Of a stretch of 64,000 bases of DNA, positions 33,872-54,993 are shown piece by piece (position 1 is the stretch's first letter; every line of letters starts with the position of its first letter). Made by a program: the position numbers and the translations under genes. The stretch is from the NCBI GenBank assembly GCA_031263025.1, contig JAISGO010000038.1, positions 3,038-67,037 on the forward strand, in the 5' to 3' direction. Origin of the DNA: Coriobacteriales bacterium (GTDB lineage: Bacteria > Actinomycetota > Coriobacteriia > Coriobacteriales > UBA8131). The notes beneath the pieces are model-generated. The model was given only the letters and a program-made list of their open reading frames with translations, did not search any database and was not told where the DNA came from.

Positions 33872-33920
33872 GAAGCATATTTTATACTAGCATAGTATAA
33901 GCTAGTATAAAATATGCTTC
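33872..33920. repeat. perfect 20-bp inverted repeat spanning the 3' end of the left transposase gene
   Basis: GAAGCATATTTTATACTAGC (33872-33891) / GCTAGTATAAAATATGCTTC (33901-33920). Confidence 0.8.
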
Positions 33921-35053
33921 AACTCTTCTAAGAACTTCTCCTTAGCGCTTCGATAACCAAGAGACTTGCGCCATTTGTTGTTGACCTTTTCGGTAGCCCG
34001 CGCCACGCCTTCGGCCCCGTATTCTGCGATGTTGTGGCCCTTCCTTATCCCCGCCTGGCGCAGTAGTCCGTTGCAGTTCTCGTTCGACCCTCTCTCCCAA
34101 GAATGATAAGCATGCGCATAGTAACAGCGCGTCCGGCACATGTGGATAAAGCCGAGTAGCTCGTACACGGAGGTCTCAAAGTCGTCTGGCCTCGTGAACT
34201 CGGTTCCGTTATCCCAAGTGATGCTCTTGAATATCGCCTGGAATAGCTTACTTCCGATGGTAAGCTCTAAATCATCGAACCATGCGACGACATTCTCATG
34301 GTCTTTTGATTCCAGGTAGGCAGTCAGGTATATGCGGGTCTTGCGCTCAAGTAGGGTCAAGACGACCTCTTTCCTGCCGCCGCGCTTACCGACCACTAGA
34401 TCTCCCTCCCAATGACCGAACTCCTCTCGCGCTTCTACCTCGGCCGGCCGCTCGTCGATGGATTCGCCTCGGGTATACACCTGCTTGTAGGTGTACTTCT
34501 TATGCTTCGCCTTGCGCCTCATCTCGGCCATCGGCAATTTGTCTGCCGAGTAGCCGAGCTTACCATTGTTGGCGTAGTTGTAGATGGTCTTCGTGCAGAC
34601 CGTCTCCGGCAGCTTCCCTTCCATCCTGGCCCGGCCGCAAGCCTCATCAGGCGAGCGCCTGTTCTCGATTATCTCTTGCGCGTACCAAAGCATCGCCTTT
34701 CGGTGCTGCGGTCTTTCGAGTTTGAGCTTCGGTCCCTTTCTCGCCCAACGCGCTTCTGCTCTTCTTTGCGCCACGTCCTCATGATAATAAGGAACCTCCT
34801 CCAACGCTTCACCATCTGACCGGCGTACCCGCCGCACTTCGAGGATTGAACCGCGTTCTATCTCGCGATAGATGGTCTTGCGGCACCTACCTAAGATCTT
34901 GGCGATCCTTGCCACCGGAAGATGAAGCCGGTTCAGAAACAAGTCCAGCGCGTTACGTTCCTTGTCGTTGAAGTACTTACCTTTTCGCTTTCGAACGCCT
35001 TCTTCATCGAGTCCGTCAAGGTACTCCTCCGCAAGTCCGTATATCTTGGGCAA
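33902..35053 (-). CDS. IS30-family DDE transposase (left)
   Basis: HWEGDL, TWDNGTEF, WERGSNENCNGLLR catalytic motifs; N-terminal HTH; TTG start. Confidence 0.85.
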   Translation of the reverse strand: MPKIYGLAEEYLDGLDEEGVRKRKGKYFNDKERNALDLFLNRLHLPVARIAKILGRCRKTIYREIERGSILEVRRVRRSDGEALEEVPYYHEDVAQRRAEARWARKGPKLKLERPQHRKAMLWYAQEIIENRRSPDEACGRARMEGKLPETVCTKTIYNYANNGKLGYSADKLPMAEMRRKAKHKKYTYKQVYTRGESIDERPAEVEAREEFGHWEGDLVVGKRGGRKEVVLTLLERKTRIYLTAYLESKDHENVVAWFDDLELTIGSKLFQAIFKSITWDNGTEFTRPDDFETSVYELLGFIHMCRTRCYYAHAYHSWERGSNENCNGLLRQAGIRKGHNIAEYGAEGVARATEKVNNKWRKSLGYRSAKEKFLEELKHILY

Positions 35054-35173
35054 ATCAGTTCGTTCCTTTCAATGCATAGTATATGCTTTGCTATACTATG
35101 CGGCTATCCGTTTCTTCTATCAGTTTGTCGATAAGATTTTACCCCTGCGGCGCACACCTTTAGCGTTTTCCGC

Positions 35174-35208
35174 TTGACAATAGTATAGTATATGCTATAC
35201 TATACTAT
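35174..35208 (+). promoter_or_regulatory. parA(L) promoter TTGACA-16-TATACT overlapped by the palindrome ATAGTATAGTATA-TGC-TATACTATACTAT
   Basis: TTGACA 35174-35179; IR 35180-35192 / 35196-35208; related IR GCATAGTATA/TATACTATGC at 35074-35101. Confidence 0.6.
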
Positions 35209-35269
35209 GTTAGGCTACTATAGAATAGTCTTCAATGTACTATGCTATGCGTGAGAAAGAGAGGTATGT

Positions 35270-35818
35270 ATGAAAACCGTTTTGTTGGTGAACCAAAAGG
35301 GAGGAAGCGGCAAGACCACCATCGCTGATGAGTTGGTCTTCAACCTGGAGCGAAAAGGCCACAAGGTGACCTTCCAATCGCTTGACGCCCAAGGCGGTTC
35401 TATACACTATGGCAGTATGCCAGACGAGGACACCGAGTACCGCGTGATCGACTCGCCCGGCGCCATGCCGAAAGAGTTCAAGAACTGGTGTTCGGCGGCT
35501 GACATCATCATCATCCCGACCAAACCCGGGATTCCCGACCTTGCGCCTTTCAATCGTACCTACTCCGCCGCCCGGCAGGCCGCGCCGAAAGCGCACATCG
35601 GCATCGTCGTCAATTTCTACGACGCCAGGCGGGTGGTCGATCGCAACTTCGTGGAGGAGTTCGTTAAGCCGCTCATGTTAGACGTCTTTGCCTATATCCC
35701 TTCCACCACCCAGGTGGCCCGCGCCCAGGCTGAACAGATCTCCGTCTTTGACTATGACCGCAACTCGGAAGTGGCTAAGGCGTTTGACGCTCTCGCAGAC
35801 AAGGTGTTGTCTCTATAG
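35270..35818 (+). CDS. parA: ParA/Soj-type partition ATPase (left)
   Basis: deviant Walker A NQKGGSGKTT; ~45% identical to 60782..61333. Confidence 0.85.
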   Translation: MKTVLLVNQKGGSGKTTIADELVFNLERKGHKVTFQSLDAQGGSIHYGSMPDEDTEYRVIDSPGAMPKEFKNWCSAADIIIIPTKPGIPDLAPFNRTYSAARQAAPKAHIGIVVNFYDARRVVDRNFVEEFVKPLMLDVFAYIPSTTQVARAQAEQISVFDYDRNSEVAKAFDALADKVLSL

Positions 35819-35879
35819 CAAATACTATACTTTGCTATACTATGCTATTATATAATATGCTAAGAAAGGAATATGCTAA

Positions 35880-36224
35880 ATGAGTACAGACATTTTCGCA
35901 GAGTCGGCGCAAGCTGCTTTAGACGCACAAGACGAAGCGATGTACGCACCGGTCCCTATGGATAAGCCCGATACGAGCAAGCGCCCGAAACGTGCCTCCC
36001 ACAAGACCTCAAAGCCGACGACTTCCGCCAGGAAAGCGGACACCGCACCCGGCGAGTATCACGTCAAGCCTGCGAACGAGCGACGCGACTGTAAGGTGCT
36101 CGTTGGGTTCACTCCGTCCGAGCGCGAGCTACTCGAGCTCATTAAGACCGCCGAGGAACGTCCGCTCACACAGGTGATCGTCCGGGCGGTCAAGGAATAC
36201 TATAAGAACCACTACCAAGCCTAG
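35880..36224 (+). CDS. ribbon-helix-helix (CopG-like) protein
   Basis: C-terminal RRDCKVLVGFTPSERELLELIK..VIVRAVKEYYKNHY; ~50% identical to 60170..60385. Confidence 0.6.
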   Translation: MSTDIFAESAQAALDAQDEAMYAPVPMDKPDTSKRPKRASHKTSKPTTSARKADTAPGEYHVKPANERRDCKVLVGFTPSERELLELIKTAEERPLTQVIVRAVKEYYKNHYQA

Positions 36225-36240
36225 TTGAAGGAGGGGCAGC

Positions 36241-37644
36241 ATGAGACATAAGTCTCGCGAGAAGATAACCACCTATACCCTCATGAACAAGAACACCCCT
36301 GTTCTTGAGTTCGAGTATGCTCTTGCTTCCTCCACTATAACTGCTATCACCGCTCTGATTAACCCGGCGTATGCGCCTCTCGACGCATCACGCGCTTATA
36401 GCGATGGCGTGATAACCGAGGAATCCCTCAACGAGTGGTGGAGGAAGCGGGGCATCCCCTCTTCCCGTCAACATTTAGCAAACGCAGAAGACGTACTGCC
36501 GGCTTCGATGATGGAGCTACTTGAACACAACTATGGTCTATCGCTTTCCGATCAGTATTGGCTCAACGATTCGCGCTCGCCCAAGAGATGGGCCGAAGTG
36601 AACTTCTTCACCAATCCTTTTAGTGTCGACATCGGCCGTGCGCTTTTCGGCGGGGTGTCTTCGGAGGAGGCATTAAGCAACGACTTTTCCCTTATCTCAC
36701 CCGACGTTACCACCGGCGGGGTCTTACAAAAGAAGTGGATTATCGACGAAGGCCAACGCGTTCTCGTCAAAGGCGCCGAGGGCCAAGATCGCCAACAGGT
36801 CTTTAACGAGGTGATTGCCACCGAGCTGTATAGCAGATTGCTACCGCCAGATGAATACGTTACTTATAAGCTTATCAAAGAGGGCCATAAAGTCTATTGC
36901 GCATGCGGGGACATGATAGACATTGACGAAGAACTTGTAAGCGCAAAAGCGATTCGGCTGCATTTCGCCCGAGAGGAGAAAACGAGCGACTACGAACATC
37001 TCGTAAATTCTTACGAAAAGCTCGGCGTCAGCCATGCGGTTACAGCTACTGCCTTTTCCAAAATGCTTGTCTGCGACGCGCTTATGGCAAACGAGGATAG
37101 GCATACGGGTAACTTCGGCGTCATTAGGGACGTGAACAGTCTGGAGATCAAACGCATCGCCCCCCTTTGGGATACCGGTAACTCTCTCTTCTTCGACAAT
37201 GCCAGTCTTCTTTTGACACCTGGCTACGAATGGGAGTTCCGTTCAAAACCGTTTGCGGCGCGTATGAAGACCCAACTGGAATATGTGGACGATTATTCTT
37301 GGTATGACCCCAAATCCCTCAAAGGGTTCAGAGATTACGTGGCAGAGAAACTTTCGGAGATCGCACTTTATAAATCGTCTGGCCTAGACGTAGCGATTGC
37401 CGCTAGTGTCGATTGCCGCCGCGACTATATAGACAAGCAAGCTCGCGAATGGCAACTGAATCACAGCCGGAATCATATGTACAACGAAGCCCAAATCGCT
37501 AAACCCAGCGACGGGAAAAATCAAGTTCAACCGAACCTCGGTCCGCACCACATGGAGGACCTTGTTGCCCAAACGACAAGGGTTTCCGAAGCCCGCGAAG
37601 AGACGCGCGGAGGGCATGGCGGGCACGAAGAACCTAAACGCTAG
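36241..37644 (+). CDS. HipA-like Ser/Thr kinase toxin homolog with portable C-terminal tail
   Basis: HipA_C catalytic loop MANEDRHTGNFGVI; RBS GGAGGGG; tail NLGPHHMEDLVAQTTRVSEA. Confidence 0.7.
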   Translation: MRHKSREKITTYTLMNKNTPVLEFEYALASSTITAITALINPAYAPLDASRAYSDGVITEESLNEWWRKRGIPSSRQHLANAEDVLPASMMELLEHNYGLSLSDQYWLNDSRSPKRWAEVNFFTNPFSVDIGRALFGGVSSEEALSNDFSLISPDVTTGGVLQKKWIIDEGQRVLVKGAEGQDRQQVFNEVIATELYSRLLPPDEYVTYKLIKEGHKVYCACGDMIDIDEELVSAKAIRLHFAREEKTSDYEHLVNSYEKLGVSHAVTATAFSKMLVCDALMANEDRHTGNFGVIRDVNSLEIKRIAPLWDTGNSLFFDNASLLLTPGYEWEFRSKPFAARMKTQLEYVDDYSWYDPKSLKGFRDYVAEKLSEIALYKSSGLDVAIAASVDCRRDYIDKQAREWQLNHSRNHMYNEAQIAKPSDGKNQVQPNLGPHHMEDLVAQTTRVSEAREETRGGHGGHEEPKR

Positions 37645-37656
37645 AAGGAAACGGTG

Positions 37657-38460
37657 ATGACGACCCAAGACCTCATAAACGCGCTACTGGAGCAACGCAG
37701 GTTGCAGATAAACGGTAACGTCTACTGGCAGACCCAGATCGACCTGGCCTATAACTCGAATAGGATCGAGGGTTCCCAACTCACCCACGAACAGACCCGC
37801 TACATCTTCGAGACACAGACGATCTCCGGCGAAAACGTTCCCGTAGACGACGTGGTGGAGATGAAGAATCACTTCCGCATGTTCTATTACATGCTGGACC
37901 ATTTCAAGGAACCCGTGAGCGTCGAGACCATCCAAAGCTATCAGGCAATCCTCAAGGCCGGCACCTTTATGTCGGAGGACCCGAAGATGAACGTGGGGGG
38001 ATGGAAGCTCATCCCGAACGCGGTCGGCAACACCACTACGTCGCTACCGGGACAAGTCGATAACGACGTGAGGGCGCTCCTCGCCGCCTATAACAGGCAC
38101 GTCGAATCCGGCCACGAGGTGACGCTCACGCAGATCGCCGCCTTCCATGCACAGTTCGAGGCGATCCACCCCTTCCTCGACGGCAACGGGCGTACCGGTC
38201 GCATCATCATGTTCCACCAATGTCTCCAGGCGGGACTTATCCCGCCCATCGTCATGGACAAGACCAAGGCGGCCTACTACGCCGGCCTCGACCGCTGGCA
38301 GAACCATAACGACAGCAAACCGCTTCTGGACTATCTCGAAGAATGTCAGGCTGATTATCGCTCAGAATGCGAGTTCCTCCTTGAGGGCAAAGGCAAAGAT
38401 TTGAGTGGCCGCAAACCAGCCGATGTTGGCTACGAGGACATCTTCAAGGCGGACGAATAA
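37657..38460 (+). CDS. Fic-domain AMPylase, class II (N-terminal inhibitory motif)
   Basis: HPFLDGNGRTGR canonical Fic motif; SNRIEG matches (S/T)xxxE(G/N); starts 9-12 nt after the HipA-like stop. Confidence 0.85.
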   Translation: MTTQDLINALLEQRRLQINGNVYWQTQIDLAYNSNRIEGSQLTHEQTRYIFETQTISGENVPVDDVVEMKNHFRMFYYMLDHFKEPVSVETIQSYQAILKAGTFMSEDPKMNVGGWKLIPNAVGNTTTSLPGQVDNDVRALLAAYNRHVESGHEVTLTQIAAFHAQFEAIHPFLDGNGRTGRIIMFHQCLQAGLIPPIVMDKTKAAYYAGLDRWQNHNDSKPLLDYLEECQADYRSECEFLLEGKGKDLSGRKPADVGYEDIFKADE

Positions 38461-38477
38461 GCTTTAGAAACTCCTTG

Positions 38478-38497
38478 ACGCCGCCTGCGGGCGGCGT
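38478..38497 (+). terminator. rho-independent terminator candidate after fic
   Basis: ACGCCGCC-TGCG-GGCGGCGT followed by TTCCTTT. Confidence 0.6.
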
Positions 38498-38537
38498 TTC
38501 CTTTGGCGGCTTTAGCCGCCTCATGACGTTCTTTCCA

Positions 38538-38590
38538 TTACCGTCTCAAGGTTGTATAATCACATTTAACGGTAACGCTGAATAGCCCGT
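38538..38590 (+). other. oriT candidate (left module): 7-bp IR with 24-nt loop followed by GGTAACGC
   Basis: TTACCGT (38538-38544) / ACGGTAA (38569-38575) then CGCTGAATAGCCC; same layout as the right module; upstream of mobC. Confidence 0.4.
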
Positions 38591-38810
38591 TGGTGACAAA
38601 TTAACTCCGCTAATTTTCTCCAACGGCATTCACTCCGAGTCCTGCCAGACTCGGAGAGGCAAACCGCCCGAGGCTTCGCCACCCGGTCGGTTTCGCACAA
38701 AAGACGCAGACTTTGTGCGGGCGTGTCGGCCTGAGCCGCCAACGTCAGGGGGAGACCCCTGAGACCCCTGGTAATGGAGTCCGCAACGACCGAAAGGAGT
38801 TGCGGACATA

Positions 38811-39242
38811 ATGGCAAGACCTCACTTGAAAGATAACGGCAGAAGCCGGAGGGTTCACTTCGCTGTCACTCCAAAGGAGTATTCGAAGATAAAGGTTCAG
38901 GCTAAAAGTCTGAACCTTACCATCTCCGCCTATATTCGTCAGCGTGCCCTCTCAGATGTTACTGTCTTTTACGCCGGTGACGACGAAGGTCTCGCTAAGA
39001 TCCGTTCACAGCTACTCCGCGCTTTCGCAAGGAACAATCAAGCGGTAAAGGCAATCAACTACATTAGTAACGGTCTTCGCGAAAACTACTTTCCAGATTC
39101 GATTAGGGAAGACCTCAAGAATTTCGCAAACGAGAACGCTCCTTATTTCTCCGATACCGCGAATCAAATCAGCGATTGCCTTGCCGGTATTTCTGACTTC
39201 TATCATTCATTCAACAAGCTTCTTAAAGAAGGGAGAATCTAA
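38811..39242 (+). CDS. mobC: MobC-type relaxosome accessory protein (left)
   Basis: RRVHFAVTPKEYSKIK..ISAYIRQRAL RHH; TAATG overlap with next gene. Confidence 0.65.
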   Translation: MARPHLKDNGRSRRVHFAVTPKEYSKIKVQAKSLNLTISAYIRQRALSDVTVFYAGDDEGLAKIRSQLLRAFARNNQAVKAINYISNGLRENYFPDSIREDLKNFANENAPYFSDTANQISDCLAGISDFYHSFNKLLKEGRI

Positions 39243-39742
39243 TGCTAGACATTTGCGCTAAAAGGGATACGCCTTACGTGTATCCAAGCCTGCGTAGTCT
39301 CATTTCCGAGGACTGTCGTTTCAGTCTCTTCAAGGCGGATAGTCTGCTTAAAGGAGACATAATCGGCGAGTATCATGCTAAACTTTGCGGTCTATTCTGG
39401 GGGAGGCAACCTCGTAGCGGTCGAGCTACGCCTCTAGTCGCCTGTCTCTTCCTTATCTATACGGCAGACGAAAATAACAAAATCGTTGAACTTGAAAATA
39501 AGTTCATTACCGCTTCCGCTTGGGATAATAACCTTCATAAACCTCTTTTCGACTCGCCTTCGGCACCGCCACCAGACGACACTCTAGCTTATTCTGATTG
39601 GCTCGCTTCATTGCATATTGACGAATCCGCAGAACCGCAAAAATATCTTGCACTTAGGAGCATCCCCATCGGTAGTTATATCACTTGCACATTCGCCCTC
39701 AACCGTAACGGGCATGGGGTACTTCGCGACTGGATCGTCTGA
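39242..39742 (+). CDS. hypothetical protein (left module only)
   Basis: translationally coupled on both sides (TAATG, TGATG); no counterpart between mobC and relaxase on the right. Confidence 0.5.
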   Translation: MLDICAKRDTPYVYPSLRSLISEDCRFSLFKADSLLKGDIIGEYHAKLCGLFWGRQPRSGRATPLVACLFLIYTADENNKIVELENKFITASAWDNNLHKPLFDSPSAPPPDDTLAYSDWLASLHIDESAEPQKYLALRSIPIGSYITCTFALNRNGHGVLRDWIV

Positions 39743-41244
39743 TGCCTGAACTCCGTCTTCAAGCCGCACACCGTAAATGCTTTGGCGTTGCTGAGTATCT
39801 ACGTTACGGGAAAGGCGAAAGCTACTTTACGAACAAACGTGAAGGAAAGACTCGTGTTCGCGCCTTCGGTGGTTTTAACCTTGCCGGCGACATCTTCGAC
39901 TGGGATCAGCAGATGGACGAAACTCGAGAGATGGCCGGAAACGACCTCCCGTATCGTGGGCGCCGGGCACGGACTTACAATCACTTCGTCCTCTCGCCCG
40001 ATCCTGCGGACGGGCTTTCCTATGAAGATGTCCTAGCCCTCGCGGAAGAATACGCCGCGCACTTCTTCGGCGACGGTGAAGTCCGTGGTACCATTGGCCA
40101 GTTTGAGAGCGCCATTATCATACATGACGACGGAACGAACAATGTGGTACATGCGCATGTGATTGTGAACAATACCGATCTCGATACCCTCAAGCGTATT
40201 CATCGTGACCGCAGAGACATCAAGGAAATGTATGACTTCGCGGAAGAGCTTGCGAAATCGCATGGGTATCATTCTTTTACGGAGACACATGAGTCTGTTC
40301 CTGCTAAGGTCGGCGAGTTCGAGATGGGAACAAGGATATTCTCCAAGCCTAGACCGATTAGTTTTGCCGAGCGTCACGCGATGGAAGCGCATGAAGGCTA
40401 CTCCTGGAAGGAGGATCTCGCCCAGCGTGTCCGGGTCGCCTATGAATGCGCGAGCGACATGAAGGGTTTCGTCCTTGCCTGCAAGGACCTCGGGGTGACG
40501 GTGGAGAAGTCGAAGGCGAAAAACTACGCCGGCGACTTCCTCTACCGTATGGCCGACGAGCCCACGCATTGCTGTCGTGCCAACAAGCTCGGCACAGACT
40601 ACCGCTCCGGCAACCTCACCCGCCACTTCGCCCGAAACGAGAAGCGTGGCCTCTGGAAGCCACGCGATGGCCAGGCGGCCGAAGTCGCGAAGGTGTTCTG
40701 GCCGAAGGGTATCCGCCGGGTCGGCAACATCGAGAAGGGAAGCGGTATCAGCCTCCACGAGGCCTTCCAGGTGATTGACTTCATGCGCGAAGTGCATGTG
40801 AGCGACTACACGCAGATAAAGCGGATTAGACCCTCTTCCGAGGACATGCGCGAGCGTCTGGAACGTTTCGCCTACGTCGCCGAACACGCCCACCTCAAGG
40901 TCAGGGACACCACGAAACCGGCCGCGAAGCCGCAGGCAAAGCAAAGCGCACCTATCGTCGAGGACGGCAAGATCGTCGGCACGGCGGACGCGAAGACCAA
41001 GGCGCTGTTCGCCACCGTGAACAAACAAGCGGCCGCAAGAAAGAAACAGATTGCAGCTATGACACCATCGGAGCGTGCTGCCGCAGCAGTCGCAGCACAA
41101 CGAAACGCACAACGAAGCCGGCCACAGCAAGCACAGCGCCGCGCCGCGCCTCAGCCACAACGTCCCGCGCCGCGACCCCAAGCGAGACCGCAACCGCAGC
41201 CACAGCGCAGCCGTCCGCCTACCCGCCACTCTCCGCAACGCTAA
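39742..41244 (+). CDS. MOBQ/MobA-VirD2-type relaxase (left)
   Basis: IHDDGTNNVVHAHVIVNNTD (HxDx..HxH), N-terminal Tyr region AEYLRYGKG; Pro/Gln/Arg-rich tail. Confidence 0.8.
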   Translation: MPELRLQAAHRKCFGVAEYLRYGKGESYFTNKREGKTRVRAFGGFNLAGDIFDWDQQMDETREMAGNDLPYRGRRARTYNHFVLSPDPADGLSYEDVLALAEEYAAHFFGDGEVRGTIGQFESAIIIHDDGTNNVVHAHVIVNNTDLDTLKRIHRDRRDIKEMYDFAEELAKSHGYHSFTETHESVPAKVGEFEMGTRIFSKPRPISFAERHAMEAHEGYSWKEDLAQRVRVAYECASDMKGFVLACKDLGVTVEKSKAKNYAGDFLYRMADEPTHCCRANKLGTDYRSGNLTRHFARNEKRGLWKPRDGQAAEVAKVFWPKGIRRVGNIEKGSGISLHEAFQVIDFMREVHVSDYTQIKRIRPSSEDMRERLERFAYVAEHAHLKVRDTTKPAAKPQAKQSAPIVEDGKIVGTADAKTKALFATVNKQAAARKKQIAAMTPSERAAAAVAAQRNAQRSRPQQAQRRAAPQPQRPAPRPQARPQPQPQRSRPPTRHSPQR

Positions 41245-41270
41245 TCGCAAAAGACAGAAAGGAACCTACC

Positions 41271-42014
41271 ATGCAAGTCAAGATCTACTACCAATCCGGT
41301 CGGGTCGCCGTCTTCGATACGGCGAACTTCACCATGCCCGAGCCTTTCGGTCCCAAGGACAAGAACATCCTCACCAACTTCGAGCTGAACCTCGACAGCT
41401 GCCAGAACGAGGATTCGCTCGGCCTTTACATCGACGTCTATTACTACGACATCGACCCTGGTGTCGGTAAACGACCGGAAACCGCCACAGCCCTCCGGGC
41501 CGGGAGGAAGGAATCGAAACTCACCTTTCCGAGCATCCGATCCGGCTACCGCTTGCTTTTAACTGACAAGGAGGGACTTGCGGACGTCGGTTATATCGAA
41601 GTCGATGGAAAGATAGTAATGTGGCGCCAAGGCGACGACCTCATCAACGCCAACAAGTTCGAGATCCAGCAGTTCATCTGCTACAACTCCACAACGGCGG
41701 AATCTTATAACACTAAGGTCTTAGACCTCTTCCGCTACGTCAGGAACGCCGAGGGCGGACGCGAAGAACACGGACCGACCGATAAGCAGATCGCCGAACG
41801 TCTCGGTTACACCGAGGCGGCGCTTTACAAGGCCATGCGCGACGAGGCCGCGAACGTCGATACTATCGAAGACGAGGACATGGCAGGAGTAGGGGAGGAA
41901 GATGAGAGCGAAAGCGATACTCCCGAGCCACCAAGTCCGCAAGAACAGCCCCAGGAAGCCCCCTCAGAGGCCATTGAGGGCCTTGCAGACGAATACCTAG
42001 CCAATCTCTCGTAG
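41271..42014 (+). CDS. conserved hypothetical protein with HTH-like segment and acidic tail (paralog of 56026..56742)
   Basis: MQVKIYYQSGRVAVFDT vs MKVNVYFENGRVNIFDT; TDKQIAERLGYTEAALYKAMRDE; follows the relaxase in both modules. Confidence 0.6.
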   Translation: MQVKIYYQSGRVAVFDTANFTMPEPFGPKDKNILTNFELNLDSCQNEDSLGLYIDVYYYDIDPGVGKRPETATALRAGRKESKLTFPSIRSGYRLLLTDKEGLADVGYIEVDGKIVMWRQGDDLINANKFEIQQFICYNSTTAESYNTKVLDLFRYVRNAEGGREEHGPTDKQIAERLGYTEAALYKAMRDEAANVDTIEDEDMAGVGEEDESESDTPEPPSPQEQPQEAPSEAIEGLADEYLANLS

Positions 42015-42053
42015 AACCCGTCAGGACGCCCCGAGAAGCCCTCTGGGCGTCCT

Positions 42054-42339
42054 CCTGCCCTCTTCTCTCGTTACCCTTCCCCAATTTTCCAGTCAACTTT
42101 TACCTCTCCGCTTTTCCCGCTACCTCCTCCACACCGCATTTCCTAACCCGTCACCTGCACCACCTCCTCCTTCGGACTTCCCCTCTGCCTACTCCTCCAT
42201 CTAGCCACAGGACCCGCCTACGGTCAAGGGCCGCTCGGGGCCATCACGGTTACCGCTGGACGCGCGCATACGCCCGCGCCTCAGCTCCCTAAGACGTGAT
42301 CGCCCCTGCGCTTGAACCCTTGACCGTAGGCGGGTCCTG
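42054..42339 (+). other. non-coding module: ~150-nt polypyrimidine tract plus 132-nt long-stem hairpin (left)
   Basis: perfect 23-bp stem CAGGACCCGCCTACGGTCAAGGG (42208-42230) / its complement (42317-42339); conserved loop GGTTACCGCTGGACG...CCTCAGCTCCCTAAG. Confidence 0.7.
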
Positions 42340-42397
42340 CGGCGTCATGCCGGCGTAGACAAAGGGACGAAGTCCCAAGATCAGAAAGGAGCCTCAC

Positions 42398-42817
42398 ATG
42401 CAGGCGACACAGGAAAAGCGGATGGTGAATCTGGAGGACAAGCGGACAATCGAGCAGGCAAAAGTCATTGCCATCAAATACCTGGAGAAAGGTAACTTCA
42501 AGATCGTCGCGCAGGATTACACCTCGACGGCGGGCGTCGCTGATTACGTCTTCTACGAGAAAGACGATTTGGTATTCGCAAGCGTCGGCCTCGGGGACAA
42601 CGAGGGGAACTTCCCGGAGCATGATTGCTCTAGCGAACGCAAGGCGGCCGAGAGGATCGCCCTCGACTATTTCACCTCCCACCCCCACATCAACTCCTGC
42701 CGCGTCCGCTTCGATAACATCGACGTCTGCTTCGCAGGCCCCTCCGGCCAGCAGGCGATGGTGAAGCACCACCGTGACGCCTACTCCACAGACGACGACT
42801 ACTCGCCCATCGGGTAG
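42398..42817 (+). CDS. YraN/UPF0102-like (endonuclease fold) protein, catalytic residues apparently lost
   Basis: layout AKVIAIKYLEKGNFKIVAQ..GVADYVF..LVFASVG..RFDNIDV parallels YraN; paralog of 55250..55660. Confidence 0.55.
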   Translation: MQATQEKRMVNLEDKRTIEQAKVIAIKYLEKGNFKIVAQDYTSTAGVADYVFYEKDDLVFASVGLGDNEGNFPEHDCSSERKAAERIALDYFTSHPHINSCRVRFDNIDVCFAGPSGQQAMVKHHRDAYSTDDDYSPIG

Positions 42818-42882
42818 CGCCGCCGGTGAGGGGGCGTTTCGCCCCCTCACCTTTCCTGCGCGTTTGTCGACGCTCGCTTCCA

Positions 42883-43145
42883 GGTAGAATAGGGGAGCGA
42901 GTTAGCGTTTCGCCGGGTGCGCCTAATCTTCCCGTGGGGAGAGGAGGTGATGCCCTTATGGATGTCTTACAGCTGATAACCGCAGCGATCCGGCTTTTAC
43001 TGGTCGTGGCGAAACTGCCGAAAGCGTTCAGGCGTTTACGCCAGGAAAGGAAGAAGCGTCCATAAAGGACGCTTCCTAATCTTAATCGGCGCACCCGGCG
43101 TCAGTCACAACCACGGGGCGCTAACTCGCTTGATTATACCACGGC
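42883..43145. repeat. 263-bp direct repeat, copy 1 (copy 2 = 53466-53728)
   Basis: read directly, ~93% identical, same orientation in both copies. Confidence 0.9.
42958..43065 (+). CDS. 35-aa hydrophobic/basic peptide (type-I-toxin-like candidate), copy 1
   Basis: MDVLQLITAAIRLLLVVAKLPKAFRRLRQERKKRP; SD GGAGAGGAGGTG; identical peptide in copy 2 despite 6 nt changes. Confidence 0.5.
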   Translation: MDVLQLITAAIRLLLVVAKLPKAFRRLRQERKKRP

Positions 43146-43157
43146 TTGAATAAGGAA

Positions 43158-43379
43158 AAGGCCGGGCACACTACGGCCCGGTCTTATTCGGTTGATGAAA
43201 CGTTTCAATCCACGTGCCTACTGAGGATAGACACGACGAGGCTATTATACGTCGTCTTCTCTGCCTACACCGCGCTGATTATTCCTATTCTGCTTTTGAA
43301 GGGTTCGGCCTGCTTGCGCGGCGCTCGCCCTTGTCGCTCCGGCGACTGTATCATCCATCTTTCGAGGACCGAGGTGAGG
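43158..43379. repeat. ~220-bp direct repeat, copy 1 (copy 2 = 43858-44077): tail-coding segment plus terminator
   Basis: read directly; contains hairpin CCGGGC..GCCCGG followed on the minus strand by a U-rich run. Confidence 0.85.
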
Positions 43380-43409
43380 ATAGCCTTTTTGGCTTTTTTG
43401 CTCGACACG

Positions 43410-43832
43410 CTACATCCTCGTTAAGACGTTATTTGACACATAGAGGTTGCGGCGTCTGAACTCCGGAGGACTGTCGTCTCGCATGACTTTCACGAGTTCT
43501 GGCCTCAGCTCCCCTATAGGCCTTCCAGCGAGCAAAGGCCGATCAAGGAAATACTGCGGCTTCTCGGTCCAAGTGGGTACGCGCAGGTTAAAATCATGTG
43601 CGAGCTTTTCGGCCTCTGCGGCATATTCCGCCATGTCGTCGCATGAAACGTCATAGCCATCTTGCGGGATAGGTTCATACTCGATGAACGACTGTCGCTG
43701 TCTCGGTTTGGCCGCGTAAAAAGCATCGAGGAAATTGCCGTTTGCAGTTGCCGGATCCACGCCTAATGCGCGTTGTGCCATCACTTCACGGAAGTTCAGC
43801 GGTCGCCTATGTAGCAAATCCCTCATTCGCAT
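43410..43832 (-). CDS. hypothetical 140-aa protein ending at a TAG that is in frame with a 54-codon shared tail
   Basis: ORF ..NNVLTRM-TAG-RVEQKSQKGYPHLGPRKMDDTVAGATRASAAQAGR..REDDV* (43409-43245). Confidence 0.5.
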   Translation of the reverse strand: MRMRDLLHRRPLNFREVMAQRALGVDPATANGNFLDAFYAAKPRQRQSFIEYEPIPQDGYDVSCDDMAEYAAEAEKLAHDFNLRVPTWTEKPQYFLDRPLLAGRPIGELRPELVKVMRDDSPPEFRRRNLYVSNNVLTRM

Positions 43833-43942
43833 ATTTTACCACGGCATCAAGAAAGACAAGGCCGGGCACTACGGCCCGGTCTTATTCGGTTGATGAAACG
43901 TTTCAATCCACGTGTCTACTGAGGATAGACACGACGAGGCTA

Positions 43943-44788
43943 TTATACATCGTCTTCTCTGCCTACACCGCGCTGAGGGTTCCTGTTTTGTCCTTGGAAG
44001 TCCCTTCCTGCTTGCGCGGCGCTCGCCCTTGTCGCTCCGGCGACTATATCATCCATCTTCCGAGGACCGAGGTGAGGTACAGCCGGCTTAGATTTATCCT
44101 CGTTAATTTTCTGTCCCGTTCTCTCTTTCGAGAAGTCAGTACCGACAAGGCAATCCTCATAAAGGAATAGCTTCAAGGGGGTCGGTTCGTTCGTTTCGTA
44201 GAAGTCCGTGAGCGCTTTCCTGAACCGGCTTAACTTGTTCTCCGCGATAGCGAGGATGCCGAACCCCTGAGAAATGAGGTAATGATTCGCTGCGAGTTGC
44301 GCCGTCCGTTTATTGCCGTCGAAGAAAAGCTGCTTACGACAGACCCAGCACATTATGTCGAGGCCCTTCTCGGGGCCTTCGGGTCCACGTAACATGCTCT
44401 CGAACCCTTCCTTATCCATCTGTTCGTTTGGAATGTCGGGTCGCCATGTCGTGCCGCCGATCCTCACGTCCACCGTCCTGACTTTCCCAGGTTCCCTCGT
44501 AACCCCGGCCTCGCCGATAAGCTGGTTGAACTCTTTCAGCATCCGGAAATCAAGTGGCACCTCGATTTCCTGCAAGCAATACTCCCAAGCGTGTTTGAGG
44601 TTGTTGATGGCGATGGTCTCGTTTACGGAGAGACCTGACACGGTTCTCCCCTCGAAGATCTCGGCGGTGTCCGGAAAAGTTACGTTGATTCCCTCTAGCC
44701 TGGCCTCTTTCCATATACTATCGACCACAAGACGCTTGGCGTACCAAACGTTCTCCTCTTGCGTCATATCGAACTTGTTCTCGAACAT
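43943..44788 (-). CDS. Fic/Doc-family protein with non-canonical motif (Gln in place of catalytic His) and portable C-terminal tail
   Basis: CRKQLFFDGNKRTAQLAANHYL aligns to HxFx(D/N)(A/G)NKR; N-terminal ARLEGINVTF. Confidence 0.7.
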   Translation of the reverse strand: MFENKFDMTQEENVWYAKRLVVDSIWKEARLEGINVTFPDTAEIFEGRTVSGLSVNETIAINNLKHAWEYCLQEIEVPLDFRMLKEFNQLIGEAGVTREPGKVRTVDVRIGGTTWRPDIPNEQMDKEGFESMLRGPEGPEKGLDIMCWVCRKQLFFDGNKRTAQLAANHYLISQGFGILAIAENKLSRFRKALTDFYETNEPTPLKLFLYEDCLVGTDFSKERTGQKINEDKSKPAVPHLGPRKMDDIVAGATRASAAQAGRDFQGQNRNPQRGVGREDDV

Positions 44789-44814
44789 TATCTTTCCTAG
44801 CTTATTCTAACAGC

Positions 44815-46497
44815 TCATTTAGTCTTGGCCGACTTGGTGGCCGAGGTCGCCGAGAGGGCGGCTTTGACGCCATCGGGTCCGCTATGGTAGACGACGACCT
44901 TCACGGCGTACTTCTTCTTGTTCGCGAGCTTCAGGGTCGCCTTGTGGGTGGAGTTTGCCTGGTAGGTCTTGTGAGACCATTTGGAGGAGCCGGACTTCTT
45001 GTAGCAGACCTGGTAGTAGGAGACGTTGCCTCCGCTGGTGGAGTAGTCTTTCCAGGAGACGGAGAGCTTGTTGTTACCGGCTTTGAGCTTCAAGGAAGAG
45101 ACCTTATGCGGGTAGACCACGAAGACACCGATGGCGAGCTTCGTTACCGGCTTGTAGATGCTGCTACCGGCGCAACTCACGGAGAGGGTGTAGCGGCCGA
45201 CCTTGGTGGGCGTTGTGGCAGAGCCGTTGTAATAGACGGTGAGCTTACCGACGGGAGCGACAAGGGCGGACACGTTCGCCGAGAGCGCCTTCTTGTCAAA
45301 GGTCGCTTTATGGCTGTAGCCGAAGCAAGAGGGCGTGAGGGCCTTCTTGGCCACCGTCGGCGTAGGCGTAGGGGTTGGCTCGGGCGTCGGATCCGGAGTC
45401 GGGCCAGGCGTCGGCGTAGGGTCGGGAGTAGGGGTCGGGGTCGGGTCGACGTCTGACGAGGAAACCGGCTTGTAGTAAGCGCAGAGCGCGAGGCTGCCGT
45501 CGCTTGCGACGGTGCCGGAGAGCTTGTTTGCGGCATTCGCCGCGTCGAAGGTGTAACCGCTGAAGGACGCGCTCGGGTTCCCGCTCGTGTCCTCGGGGAC
45601 GCTCACGGTCGCACCGACCGTGCCGCTAAGGGTGCCGCCGTTGCCTAAGATGGTGCCGTCGTCCGCATAGTAGGTGACGCTATAGGCGGCGGTCGCCGCT
45701 GGTGTCGGGGTGGGAGTGGGATCGGGTGTAGGGGTAGGCGTAGAATCGTCTGCTGGATCCTTCGAGATCCAGGCGTGGAGATCTGCGGGTTGGTCGGCAT
45801 AGGGCGCAGAACTCCAGGCTTCGCCATCGGGTTGGCATTGACCGGCGGCTACCTCGTCGGCCACGAAGTCGTAATAGCCGTCCGCCGTATCGGTCGGGGT
45901 AGCGGTTGTGCCACCGCACAGGCTTTGAAGCGAGCATGAACCAAAAGGAACGTCCGACCCCTTAATTACGTACCCGTCCGGGTCGGCTTTCGCCGCCAGG
46001 GCGTCCTTCTCGGAGATGGTGGCTGATCCAGCGGTTTGGTCTACCTCGTCGATTTCAGGGATAATTTCGCCGTTCTGGTCATGTAGACCAGAGATGGGGC
46101 AGTTCCAGTTATTGGGGCGCTGATCACCCAGGAAACCCATAGAGGGGTCTGCGACGTCTGCTTCTGTCGACCATGTTCCAACGTCTTCGCCTGGATGTGC
46201 TTGTATCTCAGGCAGATGTTCTTTGATGTACTTGATGGTGACCTCTGACATGTACGCCCAAGGATAAGGAGGATTCCAGATATTAGGGTCGTTTGTACCT
46301 TTATAGTAAAGGCCTATTATGGGATACCAATCATGTACATCTTGCCAATGCAAGGTATAAACCCAGTGACCTGATTCCGACCCGCTGTCATCTGCGAAAG
46401 CCGGCTGGCTCGGTTTGCCGAGAAGCGAAGCGGCGAGGAGGAATGTCAAAGCGACTGCTAGGGCGATTCCTGCGATATGTAAGAGTTTCCTTGTCAT
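44815..46497 (-). CDS. secreted surface protein with Pro/Thr linkers and C-terminal Ig/FN3-like domains (paralog of 53728..54993)
   Basis: signal peptide MTRKLLHIAGIALAVALTFLLAASLL..AFA; PTPTPDPTPTP linkers; ATG 46497 lies 2 nt after the upstream stop. Confidence 0.7.
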   Translation of the reverse strand: MTRKLLHIAGIALAVALTFLLAASLLGKPSQPAFADDSGSESGHWVYTLHWQDVHDWYPIIGLYYKGTNDPNIWNPPYPWAYMSEVTIKYIKEHLPEIQAHPGEDVGTWSTEADVADPSMGFLGDQRPNNWNCPISGLHDQNGEIIPEIDEVDQTAGSATISEKDALAAKADPDGYVIKGSDVPFGSCSLQSLCGGTTATPTDTADGYYDFVADEVAAGQCQPDGEAWSSAPYADQPADLHAWISKDPADDSTPTPTPDPTPTPTPAATAAYSVTYYADDGTILGNGGTLSGTVGATVSVPEDTSGNPSASFSGYTFDAANAANKLSGTVASDGSLALCAYYKPVSSSDVDPTPTPTPDPTPTPGPTPDPTPEPTPTPTPTVAKKALTPSCFGYSHKATFDKKALSANVSALVAPVGKLTVYYNGSATTPTKVGRYTLSVSCAGSSIYKPVTKLAIGVFVVYPHKVSSLKLKAGNNKLSVSWKDYSTSGGNVSYYQVCYKKSGSSKWSHKTYQANSTHKATLKLANKKKYAVKVVVYHSGPDGVKAALSATSATKSAKTK

Positions 46498-46499
46498 AG

Positions 46500-46892
46500 C
46501 TAGGCCCACCCTTCCGGAGCGATTACGGTGGCGATTTCCTCGCCGCTCTGGTAGATGTTCCACATGCCGCCCGGCGTTCCCGGCAGGTCTTTCAGGTCGT
46601 CGTTCCTATCGTAGATGAGGTTGATGCCGCCGGGCAGCTTCCCGTTTTCCATTGCGAGCCAGGCGCCGATGTCTTGTAGCCAGGGAGATTCGGTCGCGGT
46701 GAAGGTCTCATGAAGTCCAATGAGGGTAATGCCGAGCGGGTCAAGTCTCGGGAGGCCGTCTATAGACGACCAATTGCCGATAATCGCCTCGGCACCGTCC
46801 ATACTGCCCCCGAGACTCGTGACGCCATAGACGATGATTCCGCTCTCCTGCCCGGTGAGTTCCTGTAATGAGCTGTACTCCGTCATGTTCAT
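46500..46892 (-). CDS. hypothetical 130-aa protein
   Basis: ATG 46892 after GGAGAT; ATGA overlap with upstream ORF. Confidence 0.5.
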   Translation of the reverse strand: MNMTEYSSLQELTGQESGIIVYGVTSLGGSMDGAEAIIGNWSSIDGLPRLDPLGITLIGLHETFTATESPWLQDIGAWLAMENGKLPGGINLIYDRNDDLKDLPGTPGGMWNIYQSGEEIATVIAPEGWA

Positions 46893-47110
46893 ATCTCCTT
46901 TTCTTTGCCAGTATAGTCCTTGTTTCCGTTTTGCGCTACATATGCGGCATACGCCGCCCGCCATTCCTTCTGAGTGCAACGCTCGAGGTTTTTGCGGTAC
47001 TCGCCACGTTCGTAGTACTTCATACCGCGACGGACGAAGGTGTTGAAGCAGTCGTAACTGTCACCTTCATAGATGAAGTGACTATCCTTTGTTCTCTCTA
47101 GCCGTTCCAC
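46889..47110 (-). CDS. hypothetical 73-aa protein (first gene of operon)
   Basis: GTG 47110 preceded by AAAGGAG; promoter directly upstream. Confidence 0.45.
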   Translation of the reverse strand: MERLERTKDSHFIYEGDSYDCFNTFVRRGMKYYERGEYRKNLERCTQKEWRAAYAAYVAQNGNKDYTGKEKEI

Positions 47111-47132
47111 AGTCTGCTCCTTTCTTTAATAT

Positions 47133-47161
47133 AGTATAGTATATACTATGCTATATGTCAA
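47133..47161 (-). promoter_or_regulatory. promoter TTGACA-17-TATACT with left-module operator motif
   Basis: minus strand TTGACA (47161-47156), TATACT (47138-47133); spacer CATAGTATATAC resembles the parA(L) operator. Confidence 0.55.
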
Positions 47162-47191
47162 GTGAGAAATGCGGATTCTTACGATAAAGTG

Positions 47192-47215
47192 GGGGCCGGA
47201 CTTGCGTCCGGCCCC
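47192..47215 (-). terminator. terminator candidate after 47241..48326
   Basis: GGGGCCGGAC-TTGC-GTCCGGCCCC. Confidence 0.6.
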
Positions 47216-52533: not shown

Positions 52534-52534
52534 C

Positions 52535-53334: not shown

Positions 53335-53540
53335 AAGATGAGCGCCAGAAATCAATAGTGAGTTGAGTTTGGCAGGCTCAAAATTAAAAGGTGATATAAA
53401 TATAGCACTAATTCAGAAAAAGTCAAACGAGAAGGATTAAGTCCTAGAGCCGCCGGGGACTACCAAGTAGAATAGATAAACGAGTTAGCGTTTCGCCGGG
53501 TGCGCCTAATCTTCCCGTGGGGAGAGGAGGTGATGCCCTC

Positions 53541-53648
53541 ATGGATGTCTTACAGCTGATAACCGCAGCGATCCGGCTTTTGCTGGTCGTGGCGAAGCTG
53601 CCGAAAGCGTTCAGACGTTTGCGCCAGGAAAGGAAGAAGCGCCCGTAA
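53541..53648 (+). CDS. 35-aa hydrophobic/basic peptide, copy 2
   Basis: identical peptide to 42958..43065; same SD; lies in the 263-bp repeat 53466-53728. Confidence 0.5.
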   Translation: MDVLQLITAAIRLLLVVAKLPKAFRRLRQERKKRP

Positions 53649-53727
53649 AGGACGCTTCCTAATCTTAATCGGCGCACCCGACACCAGTTACAACCACGGG
53701 GCGCTAACTCATTTGATTATACCACGG

Positions 53728-54993
53728 CTATTTGGTTTTGGCCGTTTTAGTGGCACTAGTGGAGCTTACGCCAGCGCGGACGACAGAGACCTTGACTGTG
53801 TACTTCTTCTTGTCCCTAAGCTTCAAAGTTACCTTGTGTGCAGAGCTTGATTTGAGCGATTTGGTCTTCCAAGTTGTCCCTTTGGTCTTATAGGAGACCT
53901 TATAGGAGGAGGCGTTGGCTTTACTTGACGAGAAGTTCTTCCAGGAGACAATCAGCTTGTTGTTACCTGATTTGACTTTGAGAGCGGAGACCTTATGCGG
54001 GTAAATGGTGTATGTACCAAGCTCCAGCATCATAGCCGCGTTATAAGCGTCGGATCCCGTACAAGAGACCGAGACGGTGTACTTTCCGGCCTTGGTCGGA
54101 CGTTTCGTTGACTGGTTGTAGTAGACCTTTATCTTGCCAGCTGCGACCGATGATTTGACGTCAGAGGATTGAGTTTTCTTGTTGTACGTGTCAGAGGTCT
54201 CGAAGGTGAAATCTGAAGCGCTGAGGTCGGCTTTAGTGATACCGGCAGGTTCTTCGGGAACGACTGGGACGATTGGGGCAACTGGAGTGTTCGGAGAAGG
54301 CTCAGGCTCTGGTTGTGGATTAGGATTAGGGACGGGATTAGCCGGTGTAGGCTTAGGATTAGGGGTCGGCTGAGGGTTAGCGACCCATTCACTTGTAATG
54401 TAACCGCCTTTGTCGCCGCAAGTATTAAGGCAGTTCCAACCAAGTGGATCGGGGAACATGAAAAGCTCATCGGGGTTAGCTTCAGCTTGCAGGGCTAGGT
54501 CTTCGGGTATCACAACTTCGCCGGCAGTTTGGTAAACCTGGACAATTTCGGGGATGATGTCGCCGTTCTGATCCGGAAGACCAGAGATTCTAGCGTCTAC
54601 ATTTGAGTGTTCATTAAGCTCCGATAGCAAACCCATCGAGGGGTCATTTATGTCTTCTTCAGTTGACCAACAAAGAACATCAGTAGACGTGTCTTTAAGG
54701 ATTTCGTCCATGTGTTTGTTGATGTATTTTACGGTAACTACCGACATACGCTTCCAGGGATAAGGTGGGTCGAATTGATAAGGGTCATTTGCAGCCGAAA
54801 AGTATGTTCCCCGCAGAGGAGTCGATGTTGACGCTTCCGAGTAGTGCAGGGTATAGACATAATGACCAGATTCGCTTTCGTTTGCAAAAGCAGAATGGGC
54901 GGTTTTACCAAGAAGAGCGAGAGAAAGGACAAGGGAAAGGGCGATGCAAAAGGCGGCTTTAATCGCCGTTGTACGAGCGGTGTTCTTGTTCAT
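53728..54993 (-). CDS. secreted surface protein (paralog of 44815..46497)
   Basis: signal peptide ..LLGKTAHSAFA; shared ESGH(W/Y)VYTLH, DPSMG, QNG(E/D)IIPEI; RBS AAGGAGG. Confidence 0.7.
   Translation of the reverse strand: MNKNTARTTAIKAAFCIALSLVLSLALLGKTAHSAFANESESGHYVYTLHYSEASTSTPLRGTYFSAANDPYQFDPPYPWKRMSVVTVKYINKHMDEILKDTSTDVLCWSTEEDINDPSMGLLSELNEHSNVDARISGLPDQNGDIIPEIVQVYQTAGEVVIPEDLALQAEANPDELFMFPDPLGWNCLNTCGDKGGYITSEWVANPQPTPNPKPTPANPVPNPNPQPEPEPSPNTPVAPIVPVVPEEPAGITKADLSASDFTFETSDTYNKKTQSSDVKSSVAAGKIKVYYNQSTKRPTKAGKYTVSVSCTGSDAYNAAMMLELGTYTIYPHKVSALKVKSGNNKLIVSWKNFSSSKANASSYKVSYKTKGTTWKTKSLKSSSAHKVTLKLRDKKKYTVKVSVVRAGVSSTSATKTAKTK

Follow-up and report, generated by a model that had tools for sequence, protein, structure and literature searches.

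Toxins of toxin–antitoxin (TA) systems are normally treated as purely intracellular, each under its own antitoxin. In the effectors of type IV secretion systems (T4SS), such as the X-Tfe proteins with their XVIPCD, the antitoxin is encoded upstream, the toxin body is N-terminal and the shared signal is C-terminal. The BID signal, a relative of relaxase domains, is a folded domain of ~100–140 amino acids (aa) with a basic tail behind it. Polymorphic toxin loci, of the contact-dependent inhibition (CDI) and Rhs types, consist of a constant segment, exchangeable toxin modules and orphan toxin–immunity modules. The antitoxins of toxin-antitoxin-chaperone systems reportedly bear C-terminal tails called ChAD (said to have been described by Bordes et al. 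in 2016). In Bartonella, VbhT and the Bep proteins (Fic-BID) combine a FIC toxin with a C-terminal BID type IV secretion signal on a conjugative plasmid (PMC5675462, PMC6509941). The X-Tfe effectors of Xanthomonas and Stenotrophomonas carry a C-terminal XVIPCD of ~120 aa that is recognisable across genera (PMC6536674, PMC6759196), and in F-type conjugation plasmid maintenance and cargo proteins are co-transferred with the DNA by means of C-terminal signals (PMC8406263, PMC11288057). The present analysis concerns a short C-terminal tail occurring in three copies at toxin-type genes of a mobile element, within a stretch of 64 kb, part of an 86-kb contig of a Coriobacteriales metagenome-assembled genome (MAG), that was analysed as a whole and is called the window below.

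The three homologous tails are tail C, at the end of a HipA-like kinase of 467 aa, tail A, at the end of a Fic-fold protein of 281 aa, and tail B, behind an open reading frame (ORF) of 140 codons named ORF140 (Table 1). Each was found at the place given in the preliminary description of this DNA, positions 37537 and 44071 being the Leu of LGP in tails C and A, and the proteins end in ..PNLGPHHMEDLVAQTTRVSEAREETRGGHGGHEEPKR (HipA-like) and ..PHLGPRKMDDIVAGATRASAAQAGRDFQGQNRNPQRGVGREDDV (Fic-fold), while tail B is ended by the stop codons TAA TAG at 43247-43242. The tail measures ~45 aa; its linker is flexible, its core (L-G-P-x-x-M-[DE]-D-x-V-A-x-x-T-R-x-S-x-A) is short and helix-forming, and its end is charged. 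Tail A shares 82% identity with tail B (50 aa aligned) and 39% with tail C (44 aa aligned; E = 3e-5 by tblastn against the six-frame window); the pair A and C reaches a BLOSUM62 score of 69, against 20 +/- 3.8 (maximum 47) for shuffled tails, a similarity far above chance. A fourth copy was not found within the window by tblastn. The bodies are unrelated, as had been proposed, with Pfam assigning HipA_C to one and Fic to the second, and ORF140 belonging to no named family. Homology of the tails at the DNA level, also claimed beforehand, is true of A and B, which lie in a direct repeat of 245 nucleotides (nt); the similarity of copy C to A/B is limited to ~60 nt, all of it coding sequence. Mismatches between A and C are in excess at third codon positions, and one Ser is kept through AGC versus TCC.

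Compared with the systems above, the tail is not a member of the BID, XVIPCD, ChAD or polymorphic toxin classes, from which it departs in size, fold, carrier or polarity; it would appear to work as their modules do, as a constant, exchangeable recognition segment. No description of shared tails on TA toxins was found in the searchable full-text literature.

Homologues of each body are normally without the window tail. The HipA-like kinase has 856 homologues, most of which are ~400 aa long and end before the tail, and the remainder have tails unrelated to tail C; an origin of the tail as a C-terminal extension of the HipA family was rejected, since the tails of the other homologues are not significantly similar. 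The 579 plasmid records with relatives of the Fic-fold protein cover only its residues 1 to ~230. Tail matches between Fic-like and HipA-like homologues from different contigs were, the window pair excepted, no better than a shuffled control, and tails are therefore element-specific. In the Fic-fold protein (motif QLFFDGNKRT) the catalytic His position is occupied by Gln, as in 115 of 116 Fic-fold relatives (P0128-P0246; pattern QxFxDGNKRT, Doc-like NKR); the family also has an N-terminal ..LEG.. with invariant E32 and G33, and the best PDB matches of the body are FICD and BtFic. Such Gln variants may be pseudo-enzymes or enzymes of a non-canonical kind, and the family is frequent on plasmids of Gram-positive bacteria and of Campylobacter.

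The exact tail was searched for in several collections. A hidden Markov model (HMM) of the three tails, run against 1.84 billion protein representatives, retrieved only the two window proteins and P0122, a protein of 1128 aa with FMN_bind repeats whose score is the sum of six weak stretches (DVVAGATYTS) and which was considered spurious. Its flavinylation-site region DVVAGATYTSNA resembles the core DDIVAGATRASA, a likeness judged to be due to chance since tail C has AQTT at that place; a flavin mononucleotide (FMN)-binding/flavinylation motif D-x-x-[ST]-G-A-[ST] was likewise rejected, tail A reading AGAT and tail C AQTT, with no FMN_bind domain and no signal peptide. A word-indexed protein search with tail A gave no candidates. 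A codon-degenerate DNA pattern matched once in 596 Gb of genomes (a Polyangiaceae MAG, at the fixed residues only; ~0.5 matches expected by chance) and not at all in metagenome contigs or viral contigs. Plasmid DNA and tblastn searches with the tail region and with the tail of locus L010 (see below) returned no matches, comparison of the tails with Pfam and PDB at E <= 10 gave nothing meaningful, and Rfam gave no match at gathering or E-value thresholds. The HMM search suggested in the preliminary description thus failed for the exact motif, which is absent outside the contig; diverged tails showed the same phenomenon elsewhere, and a more general version of the portable-tail idea therefore stands.

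A common C-terminal peptide on unrelated toxin-type proteins is also present in at least three other mobile elements of Gram-positive bacteria, each tail being specific to its element. Locus L005 is a mobilizable element related to that of the window (UPF0102, relaxase and NikA genes). It encodes P0128, the closest relative of the window Fic-fold protein (59% identity), and directly after it a HipA_C kinase with 24% identity to the window kinase; both proteins end in a common tail of 68 aa (74% identical in protein, ~88% in DNA; ..ERYGDxDDSKxASGTLGKMRDVLDT..AAGSLxQRGDSA..KPEPxHGHT), and the repeat is confined to coding DNA and ends at the stop codons. In locus L009, the shared segment is LDER..RASKDS.RQ (E = 2e-4), carried by an AbiEii nucleotidyltransferase toxin and by the Fic-fold protein encoded next to it. 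The third case is a conjugative element with ParA, ParB, TrbL, PrgI and VirB4-like genes (L010/L011/L012). In L010, a HipA-like kinase, a HepT RNase and a Fic-fold protein share ..[IV]ADKI..A[IL]..GE[IL]D....GQER, and a 161-aa protein and a GGDEF protein match the motif more weakly. The HipA and HepT tails are 52% identical in protein and 56% in DNA, with saturated synonymous sites, and the codons that spell the terminal GQER differ between these two genes.

Exchange of toxin bodies with retention of the tail is directly evidenced by L010 and L011, which are ~99% identical save for one cassette (L010 8740-9838, L011 9094-9840). This cassette holds MNT and the HepT body in L010, and an unrelated 116-aa gene and a 152-aa body of no named family in L011; its right junction (9839/9841) is the exact start of the tail, which is kept unchanged. 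This is the most direct support for regarding the tail as a transferable module. As in polymorphic toxin loci (cf. PMC5576092), there is a constant segment, recombination at a junction, and leftover orphans that keep the constant stretch, such as tail B. Unlike in these loci, the polarity is reversed, with a constant C-terminal part of ~45 aa, the antitoxin upstream and small cytoplasmic TA toxins as carriers; the arrangement of N-terminal trafficking region, C-terminal toxin and downstream immunity gene was not found, so that only junction exchange and orphans are shared.

Selection on the peptide was estimated from the proportions of nonsynonymous and synonymous differences (pN/pS). Between tails A and B, pN/pS was 0.144/0.412 in the tail frame (distance ratio ~0.27) and ~1 or more in the other sense frames. 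Values of 0.23-0.28, restricted to the tail frame, were obtained in four independent pairs (window A/B, L005 with 0.23, L009 with 0.25, and L010), a pattern by which the tail is to be regarded as a translated peptide under purifying selection. In AlphaFold2 models, the confidence score (pLDDT) exceeds 96 in the Fic-fold body and 90 in the HipA-like body, and falls to 51-57 in tail A (disordered linker at 233-244, low-confidence helix at 245-265) and 38-62 in tail C (low-confidence helix at 435-456). The tail is thus predicted to sit outside the Fic and HipA folds, as a linker with one detached helix that these folds would not require. Its net charge, counted from the sequence, is ~+1 for A and ~-2 for C.

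Table 1. Coordinates, in the window, of the tails, the genes at which they lie and the associated repeats
Feature	Position	Strand	Remarks
Tail C	37510..37641	+	DGKNQVQPNLGPHHMEDLVAQTTRVSEAREETRGGHGGHEEPKR; residues ~424-467 of the HipA-like ORF
Tail A	43946..44095	-	KSKPAVPHLGPRKMDDIVAGATRASAAQAGRDFQGQNRNPQRGVGREDDV; residues 232-281 of the Fic-fold ORF
Tail B (most likely an orphan)	43248..43409	-	RVEQKSQKGYPHLGPRKMDDTVAGATRASAAQAGRTLQKQNRNNQRGVGREDDV; in frame after the TAG stop of ORF140
HipA-like kinase gene, 467 aa, with tail C	36241..37644	+	weak PF07804 HipA_C match; NCBI MDR1016657.1 (identical, Coriobacteriales MAG)
Canonical Fic gene, 268 aa	37654..38460	+	HPFLDGNGRTGR; PF02661, E = 1.4e-14; matches PADLOC PDC-S04
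Fic-fold protein gene, 281 aa, with tail A	43943..44788	-	PF02661, 24.7 bits; NCBI MDR1016664.1
ORF140, 140 aa, no named family	43410..43832	-	homologue on Brevibacillus plasmid NZ_CP144923, 38% identity, E = 8e-9 (tblastn)
Repeat R, copy A	43833..44077	-	tail core, hairpins of the 3' untranslated region (UTR), terminator 43879-43862, extended -10-like box
Repeat R, copy B	43133..43379	-	families D4 and D14; terminator 43181-43162
Repeat D2 (context only, not part of the tail)	42877..43146 and 53460..53729		family D2, 93% identity; first copy abuts repeat R copy B

We consider it moderately probable that the tail is a modular, selected C-terminal recognition handle on the toxins of the element, because it is a C-terminal linker–helix peptide under purifying selection, is carried by chemically unrelated toxins (kinase, Fic fold, nucleotidyltransferase, RNase), and is similar within elements and divergent between them. 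The tail would then be a modular 3' gene segment common to the toxin cargo genes of one mobile element, toxin bodies being exchanged by recombination at the body–tail junction with the tail kept. In the window, the functional copies would be those of the HipA-like and Fic-fold genes, and copy B would be left over from the replacement or deletion of a body. Through binding of the tail helix to a single partner, every tagged toxin of an element would receive the same treatment.

This partner may be the conjugative transfer machinery, namely the coupling protein of the element or of a helper, the toxins being transfer-associated substrates; the proposal is tentative, and possible rather than probable. 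The coupling protein is favoured because of the layout of the tagged genes, which resembles that of T4SS effectors (antitoxin gene upstream, toxin body N-terminal, shared module C-terminal), because of the genomic context and because of the P-x-R/..R ends of the relaxases. In all four elements, relaxase, ParA/ParB or T4SS genes lie beside the tagged genes (relaxase and NikA genes in the window and L005; TrbL, PrgI and VirB4-like genes in L010), and the tails stand at the extreme C-terminus, a location found in T4SS substrates encoded on or next to conjugation genes. In Coriobacteriia-type elements, the relaxase ends are hydrophilic and have Arg as their last residue (..SPQR, ..GAR, ..KDR, ..SPGR), and comparable stretches, ..EPKR and ..NPQR, occur in the toxin tails, the likeness being to tail C and to the NPQR of tail A; this loose hydrophilic P-x-R or ..R end is the only likeness of the tails to relaxases. 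More speculatively still, Gram-positive gut elements (Coriobacteriia, Firmicutes) might tag HipA-like, Fic-fold, AbiEii and HepT toxins for injection together with the DNA, the tag being read by the coupling protein. This would amount to effector delivery or to an 'addiction on arrival', into which new toxin bodies would be plugged by recombination at the tail.

As separate observations on C-termini, four of four Coriobacteriia-type relaxases end in R after R/Q/S-rich tails (window 39742-41244 and 56764-58185; L005 8210-9676; L008 2751-4289). An excess of C-terminal Arg was also noted in relatives of the toxin bodies (40 of 119 Fic-fold and 33 of 120 HipA-like relatives, often as ..ER or ..P-x-R), and R is the last residue in ~17 of the 37 Fic-fold tails that are 9 aa or longer.

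The comparison with Bartonella Fic-BID holds in that a TA-type Fic toxin, a conjugation-related element and an add-on C-terminal module absent from ordinary homologues occur together, with the module on several cargo proteins and an antitoxin/immunity gene adjacent. Unlike BID, the tail has ~45 aa, is predicted to be mostly disordered with a single helix, lacks an overall basic character, matches no Pfam family and does not occur in the relaxases; a BID-type folded domain with a positively charged tail was not found (pLDDT 51-57, one helix, no Pfam or PDB match). The host also differs, being a Gram-positive Coriobacteriales MAG. With X-Tfe/XVIPCD, where the domain defines the substrate set of one T4SS, the locus shares variable unrelated N-terminal toxin bodies, one constant C-terminal module and a cognate immunity gene nearby; unlike XVIPCD, the tails are short, element-specific and carried by the cytoplasmic TA toxins HipA, Fic, AbiEii and HepT. 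The signals of F-type conjugation are Gram-negative and have no reported common motif on unrelated cargo, whereas a recognisable shared motif is present here.

Several findings weigh against a recognition handle, or against its being read by the transfer machinery. T4SS genes were not seen in the annotated parts of the window element; by tblastn, the core motif was not found in the two window relaxases or in the L005 relaxase, so that no signal shared with the relaxase of the element was detected; and tail A runs 8 residues past PQR. The tail is small, far shorter than BID or XVIPCD, and its sequence is specific to each element rather than conserved across elements, the exact window motif being unique to this contig. 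The link between the L005 and window tails consists of the orthology of the Fic-like bodies and a weak LG..KM.D[VI] match, and homology of the window tail to the L009 and L010 tails is only suggestive at the sequence level. The phenomenon is also uncommon. In a survey of ~90 loci with Fic-fold relatives (80 metagenome loci and those above; ~2200 ORFs), the last 60 aa of all ORFs of a locus were compared, unrelated bodies being required, and only four element families (window, L005, L009 and L010/L011) were found; another shared-tail match was rejected as an ordinary pair of dockerin domains. Loci L016/L017, with HipA-like and Fic-fold genes beside a relaxase, have no common tail, and no additional case came from L016/L017, L014, L008 and 80 further metagenome loci, many of the surveyed loci being short, with partner genes that may lie off-contig. 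Shared tails are recurrent but not general, and the evidence base is a handful of metagenomic contigs. Within the A/B pair, moreover, the 3' UTR (~97% identity) is better conserved than the middle of the tail, which means that DNA-level processes, such as gene conversion or a UTR with a regulatory role, are at work there too.

The handle might serve a shared intracellular regulator, either as a docking peptide for a neutraliser, adaptor or chaperone of the element or as a degron for a housekeeping protease, so that the toxins are silenced, released or degraded together; this is the chief rival reading, though rather unlikely. Likeness within elements with divergence between them is typical of co-evolving cognate pairs, a disordered linker with one helix resembles a binding motif, and the conserved extreme C-terminus of L010 (GQER) recalls C-terminal degrons or PDZ-type recognition. 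The Fic-like and HipA-like genes of L005 are directly adjacent, and no antitoxin gene is apparent between the two. Against this reading, several tagged toxins have an upstream antitoxin of their own (MNT for HepT, a 134-aa protein for AbiEii), the four elements have no candidate partner gene in common, and classical TA degrons are found on antitoxins, not on toxins. A precedent is the portable ChAD tail, which is likewise a short disordered C-terminal extension on unrelated TA proteins and makes its carriers clients of one partner. Unlike the tails described here, ChAD is carried by antitoxins rather than toxins and needs an adjacent SecB-like chaperone gene; among the scanned neighbours, Pfam revealed neither a SecB-like gene nor a protease.

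Improbable as well is a homotypic association tag, whose amphipathic helices would pair with one another, so that toxins (or a toxin and the His-less Fic-fold protein) co-assemble and self-complementarity forces concerted evolution. The resemblance of tails within an element and their divergence between elements would follow from it, the Gln-variant, perhaps non-catalytic Fic-fold protein is one partner in three of the four elements, and the L010 tails show a 1-4-8-11-15 hydrophobic spacing. The window core (MDDIVAGATRASAA), however, is Ala/Gly-rich and weakly amphipathic, identity between tails A and C of the window is only 39%, with 6 kb between their coding sequences, and in L010 the motif is on five very different proteins.

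Tails A and B lie inside the repeat mentioned above (repeat R, ~91% identity, families D4 and D14), and it is in this pair that conservation extends into non-coding DNA, which it does not in all copies. Beyond the tail, repeat R contains a 3' UTR of ~70 nt with two hairpins (fold z-score of -3.65 in copy A), a terminator hairpin and an extended -10-like box, GCCGTGGTA(T/A)AAT. Identity varies along the repeat, with ~97% in the tail core and the 3' UTR and ~60% in a 33-nt patch in the middle of the tail, a patch that nevertheless keeps 7 of 11 residues, including one Arg as AGG versus CGA. These features bear on a DNA- or RNA-level element with incidental translation, be it a mobile 3' gene-end cassette (UTR, terminator and next promoter), an antisense-RNA target or a recombination site. 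For such an element speak the extension of the A/B repeat 115 nt past the stop, through two hairpins, the terminator and the -10-like box, at ~97% identity, the location of copy B behind a stop codon, and the abutment of the repeat on a type-I-toxin-like module with an antisense promoter. It is nonetheless very unlikely: purifying selection is frame-specific in four independent pairs, the L005 similarity ends at the stop codons, the L010 tails keep the peptide with DNA identity down to 56%, copy C shares only coding sequence with A/B, Rfam gave no match, and no promoter-like site was found on either strand within 42000-45000. The mobile 3' gene-end/terminator cassette raised in the preliminary description therefore fits the A/B pair only; it is contradicted because selection is frame-specific and because in L005, L009 and L010 the similarity stops at the stop codon or exists at the peptide level only.

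The Brevibacillus plasmid homologue of ORF140 stops at the same aligned residue, so that the TAG of ORF140 is its native stop, and tail B therefore lies outside any normal gene product today. Its location just behind ORF140 had been seen correctly; to this it must be added that it is also in frame with the native TAG. In the Brevibacillus plasmid the next gene encodes a DUF6036/AbiEii-like nucleotidyltransferase, and ORF140, which has kept its own stop, resembles the antitoxin half of a pair with a nucleotidyltransferase toxin. Tail B is most likely an orphan: the toxin gene that once bore it would have had its body exchanged or lost, an origin that mirrors the L010/L011 body swap. As to the neighbouring repeat D2, each copy (270 nt) encodes an identical hydrophobic peptide of 35 aa with a basic end, MDVLQLITAAIRLLLVVAKLPKAFRRLRQERKKRP (ORFs 42958-43065 and 53541-53648, + strand), preceded by a strong Shine-Dalgarno sequence, and a convergent extended -10 box, GTGGTATAAT, lies just downstream on the opposite strand. 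From its sequence, D2 looks like a two-copy type I toxin/antisense-RNA module.

The canonical Fic gene lies directly downstream of the HipA-like gene and shares its reading frame across the TAG stop (HipA-like, TAG, 3 codons, then the in-frame Fic of 268 aa, at 37642-37656). An in-frame ORF thus follows both tail-adjacent TAGs (37642-37656 and 43410-43412), a coincidence (~1 in 9) or a hint of read-through fusions. Read-through or recoding of TAG would turn ORF140-TAG-tail B and HipA-like-tail-TAG-Fic into fusions with the tail as inter-domain linker. Although an in-frame ORF (tail B; the 268-aa Fic) stands behind each stop, this is extremely unlikely: two such coincidences arise by chance with the frequency just given, the ORF140 stop is at the native C-terminus of its family, neither a suppressor tRNA nor any other tRNA or tmRNA was found in a scan of the window, and the L005, L009 and L010 tails end at ordinary stops with no in-frame ORF behind.

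Further candidates were rejected. The class III Fic inhibitory helix ([S/T]xxxE[G/N]) does not apply, tail A having TRASAA without Glu, the body its own N-terminal ..LEG.. and non-Fic proteins the same tail. As a pseudo-substrate, flavinylation site or membrane-targeting helix, the motif is not conserved or its charge is wrong, and the same kind of tail is on an RNase and nucleotidyltransferases. A variable repeat of a diversity-generating retroelement (DGR) is not indicated, as the A/B differences are not adenine-specific and no reverse transcriptase was seen in the proteins scanned (the check was not exhaustive). Copies C and A stand in inverted orientation, but an inversion or shufflon was rejected, with no recombinase adjacent and a DNA identity of only ~65%.

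Other observations concern the organisation of the window. Two paralogous mobilization modules stand in inverted orientation (33902-42817 and 62672-55250), with an IS30-like transposase gene on the outer flank of each. Each is composed of ParA, a small ribbon-helix-helix (RHH)-like gene, a toxin slot, a NikA-like gene, a relaxase, a protein of ~240 aa and UPF0102; the toxin slot is occupied by HipA-like and Fic genes in one module and by a 133-aa gene and AbiEii in the other. AT-rich repeats of the TATAGTATA type (family D6) were found at 35173-35204 and 47124-47155 (84% identical), and also at 30496-30539, 33880-33911 and 35218-35249. The copies at 35173 and 47124 bracket a 12-kb segment with all three tails, and could be element ends or iteron-like sites. 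Positions 44815-54993 form a surface-protein/pilus island, with a 1022-aa protein containing SpaA-type domains and a sortase. Paralogous fn3/MBG surface proteins are encoded at 44815-46563 and 53728-54993, each with a D2 module after it; relative to the second copy, the segment formed by the Fic-fold gene, repeat R, ORF140 and repeat R is inserted between the first surface-protein gene and D2. In the chromosomal-looking left part of the window, a direct repeat of 72 nt (3654-3725 and 3762-3833) is 99% identical, its copies starting 108 nt apart.

A shared exchangeable tail points to an element-level layer of control or delivery over a whole set of toxins, and it explains the shuffling of toxin cassettes on these elements. 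Were its partner the conjugation machinery, the tail would give protein substrates of Gram-positive T4SS their first tag recognisable in sequence, and would indicate a route of interbacterial toxin delivery in the gut; were the partner a regulator or a protease, it would represent a new mode of coordinated toxin control. With either partner, the tail would serve as a marker for new toxin cargo and as an engineering handle.

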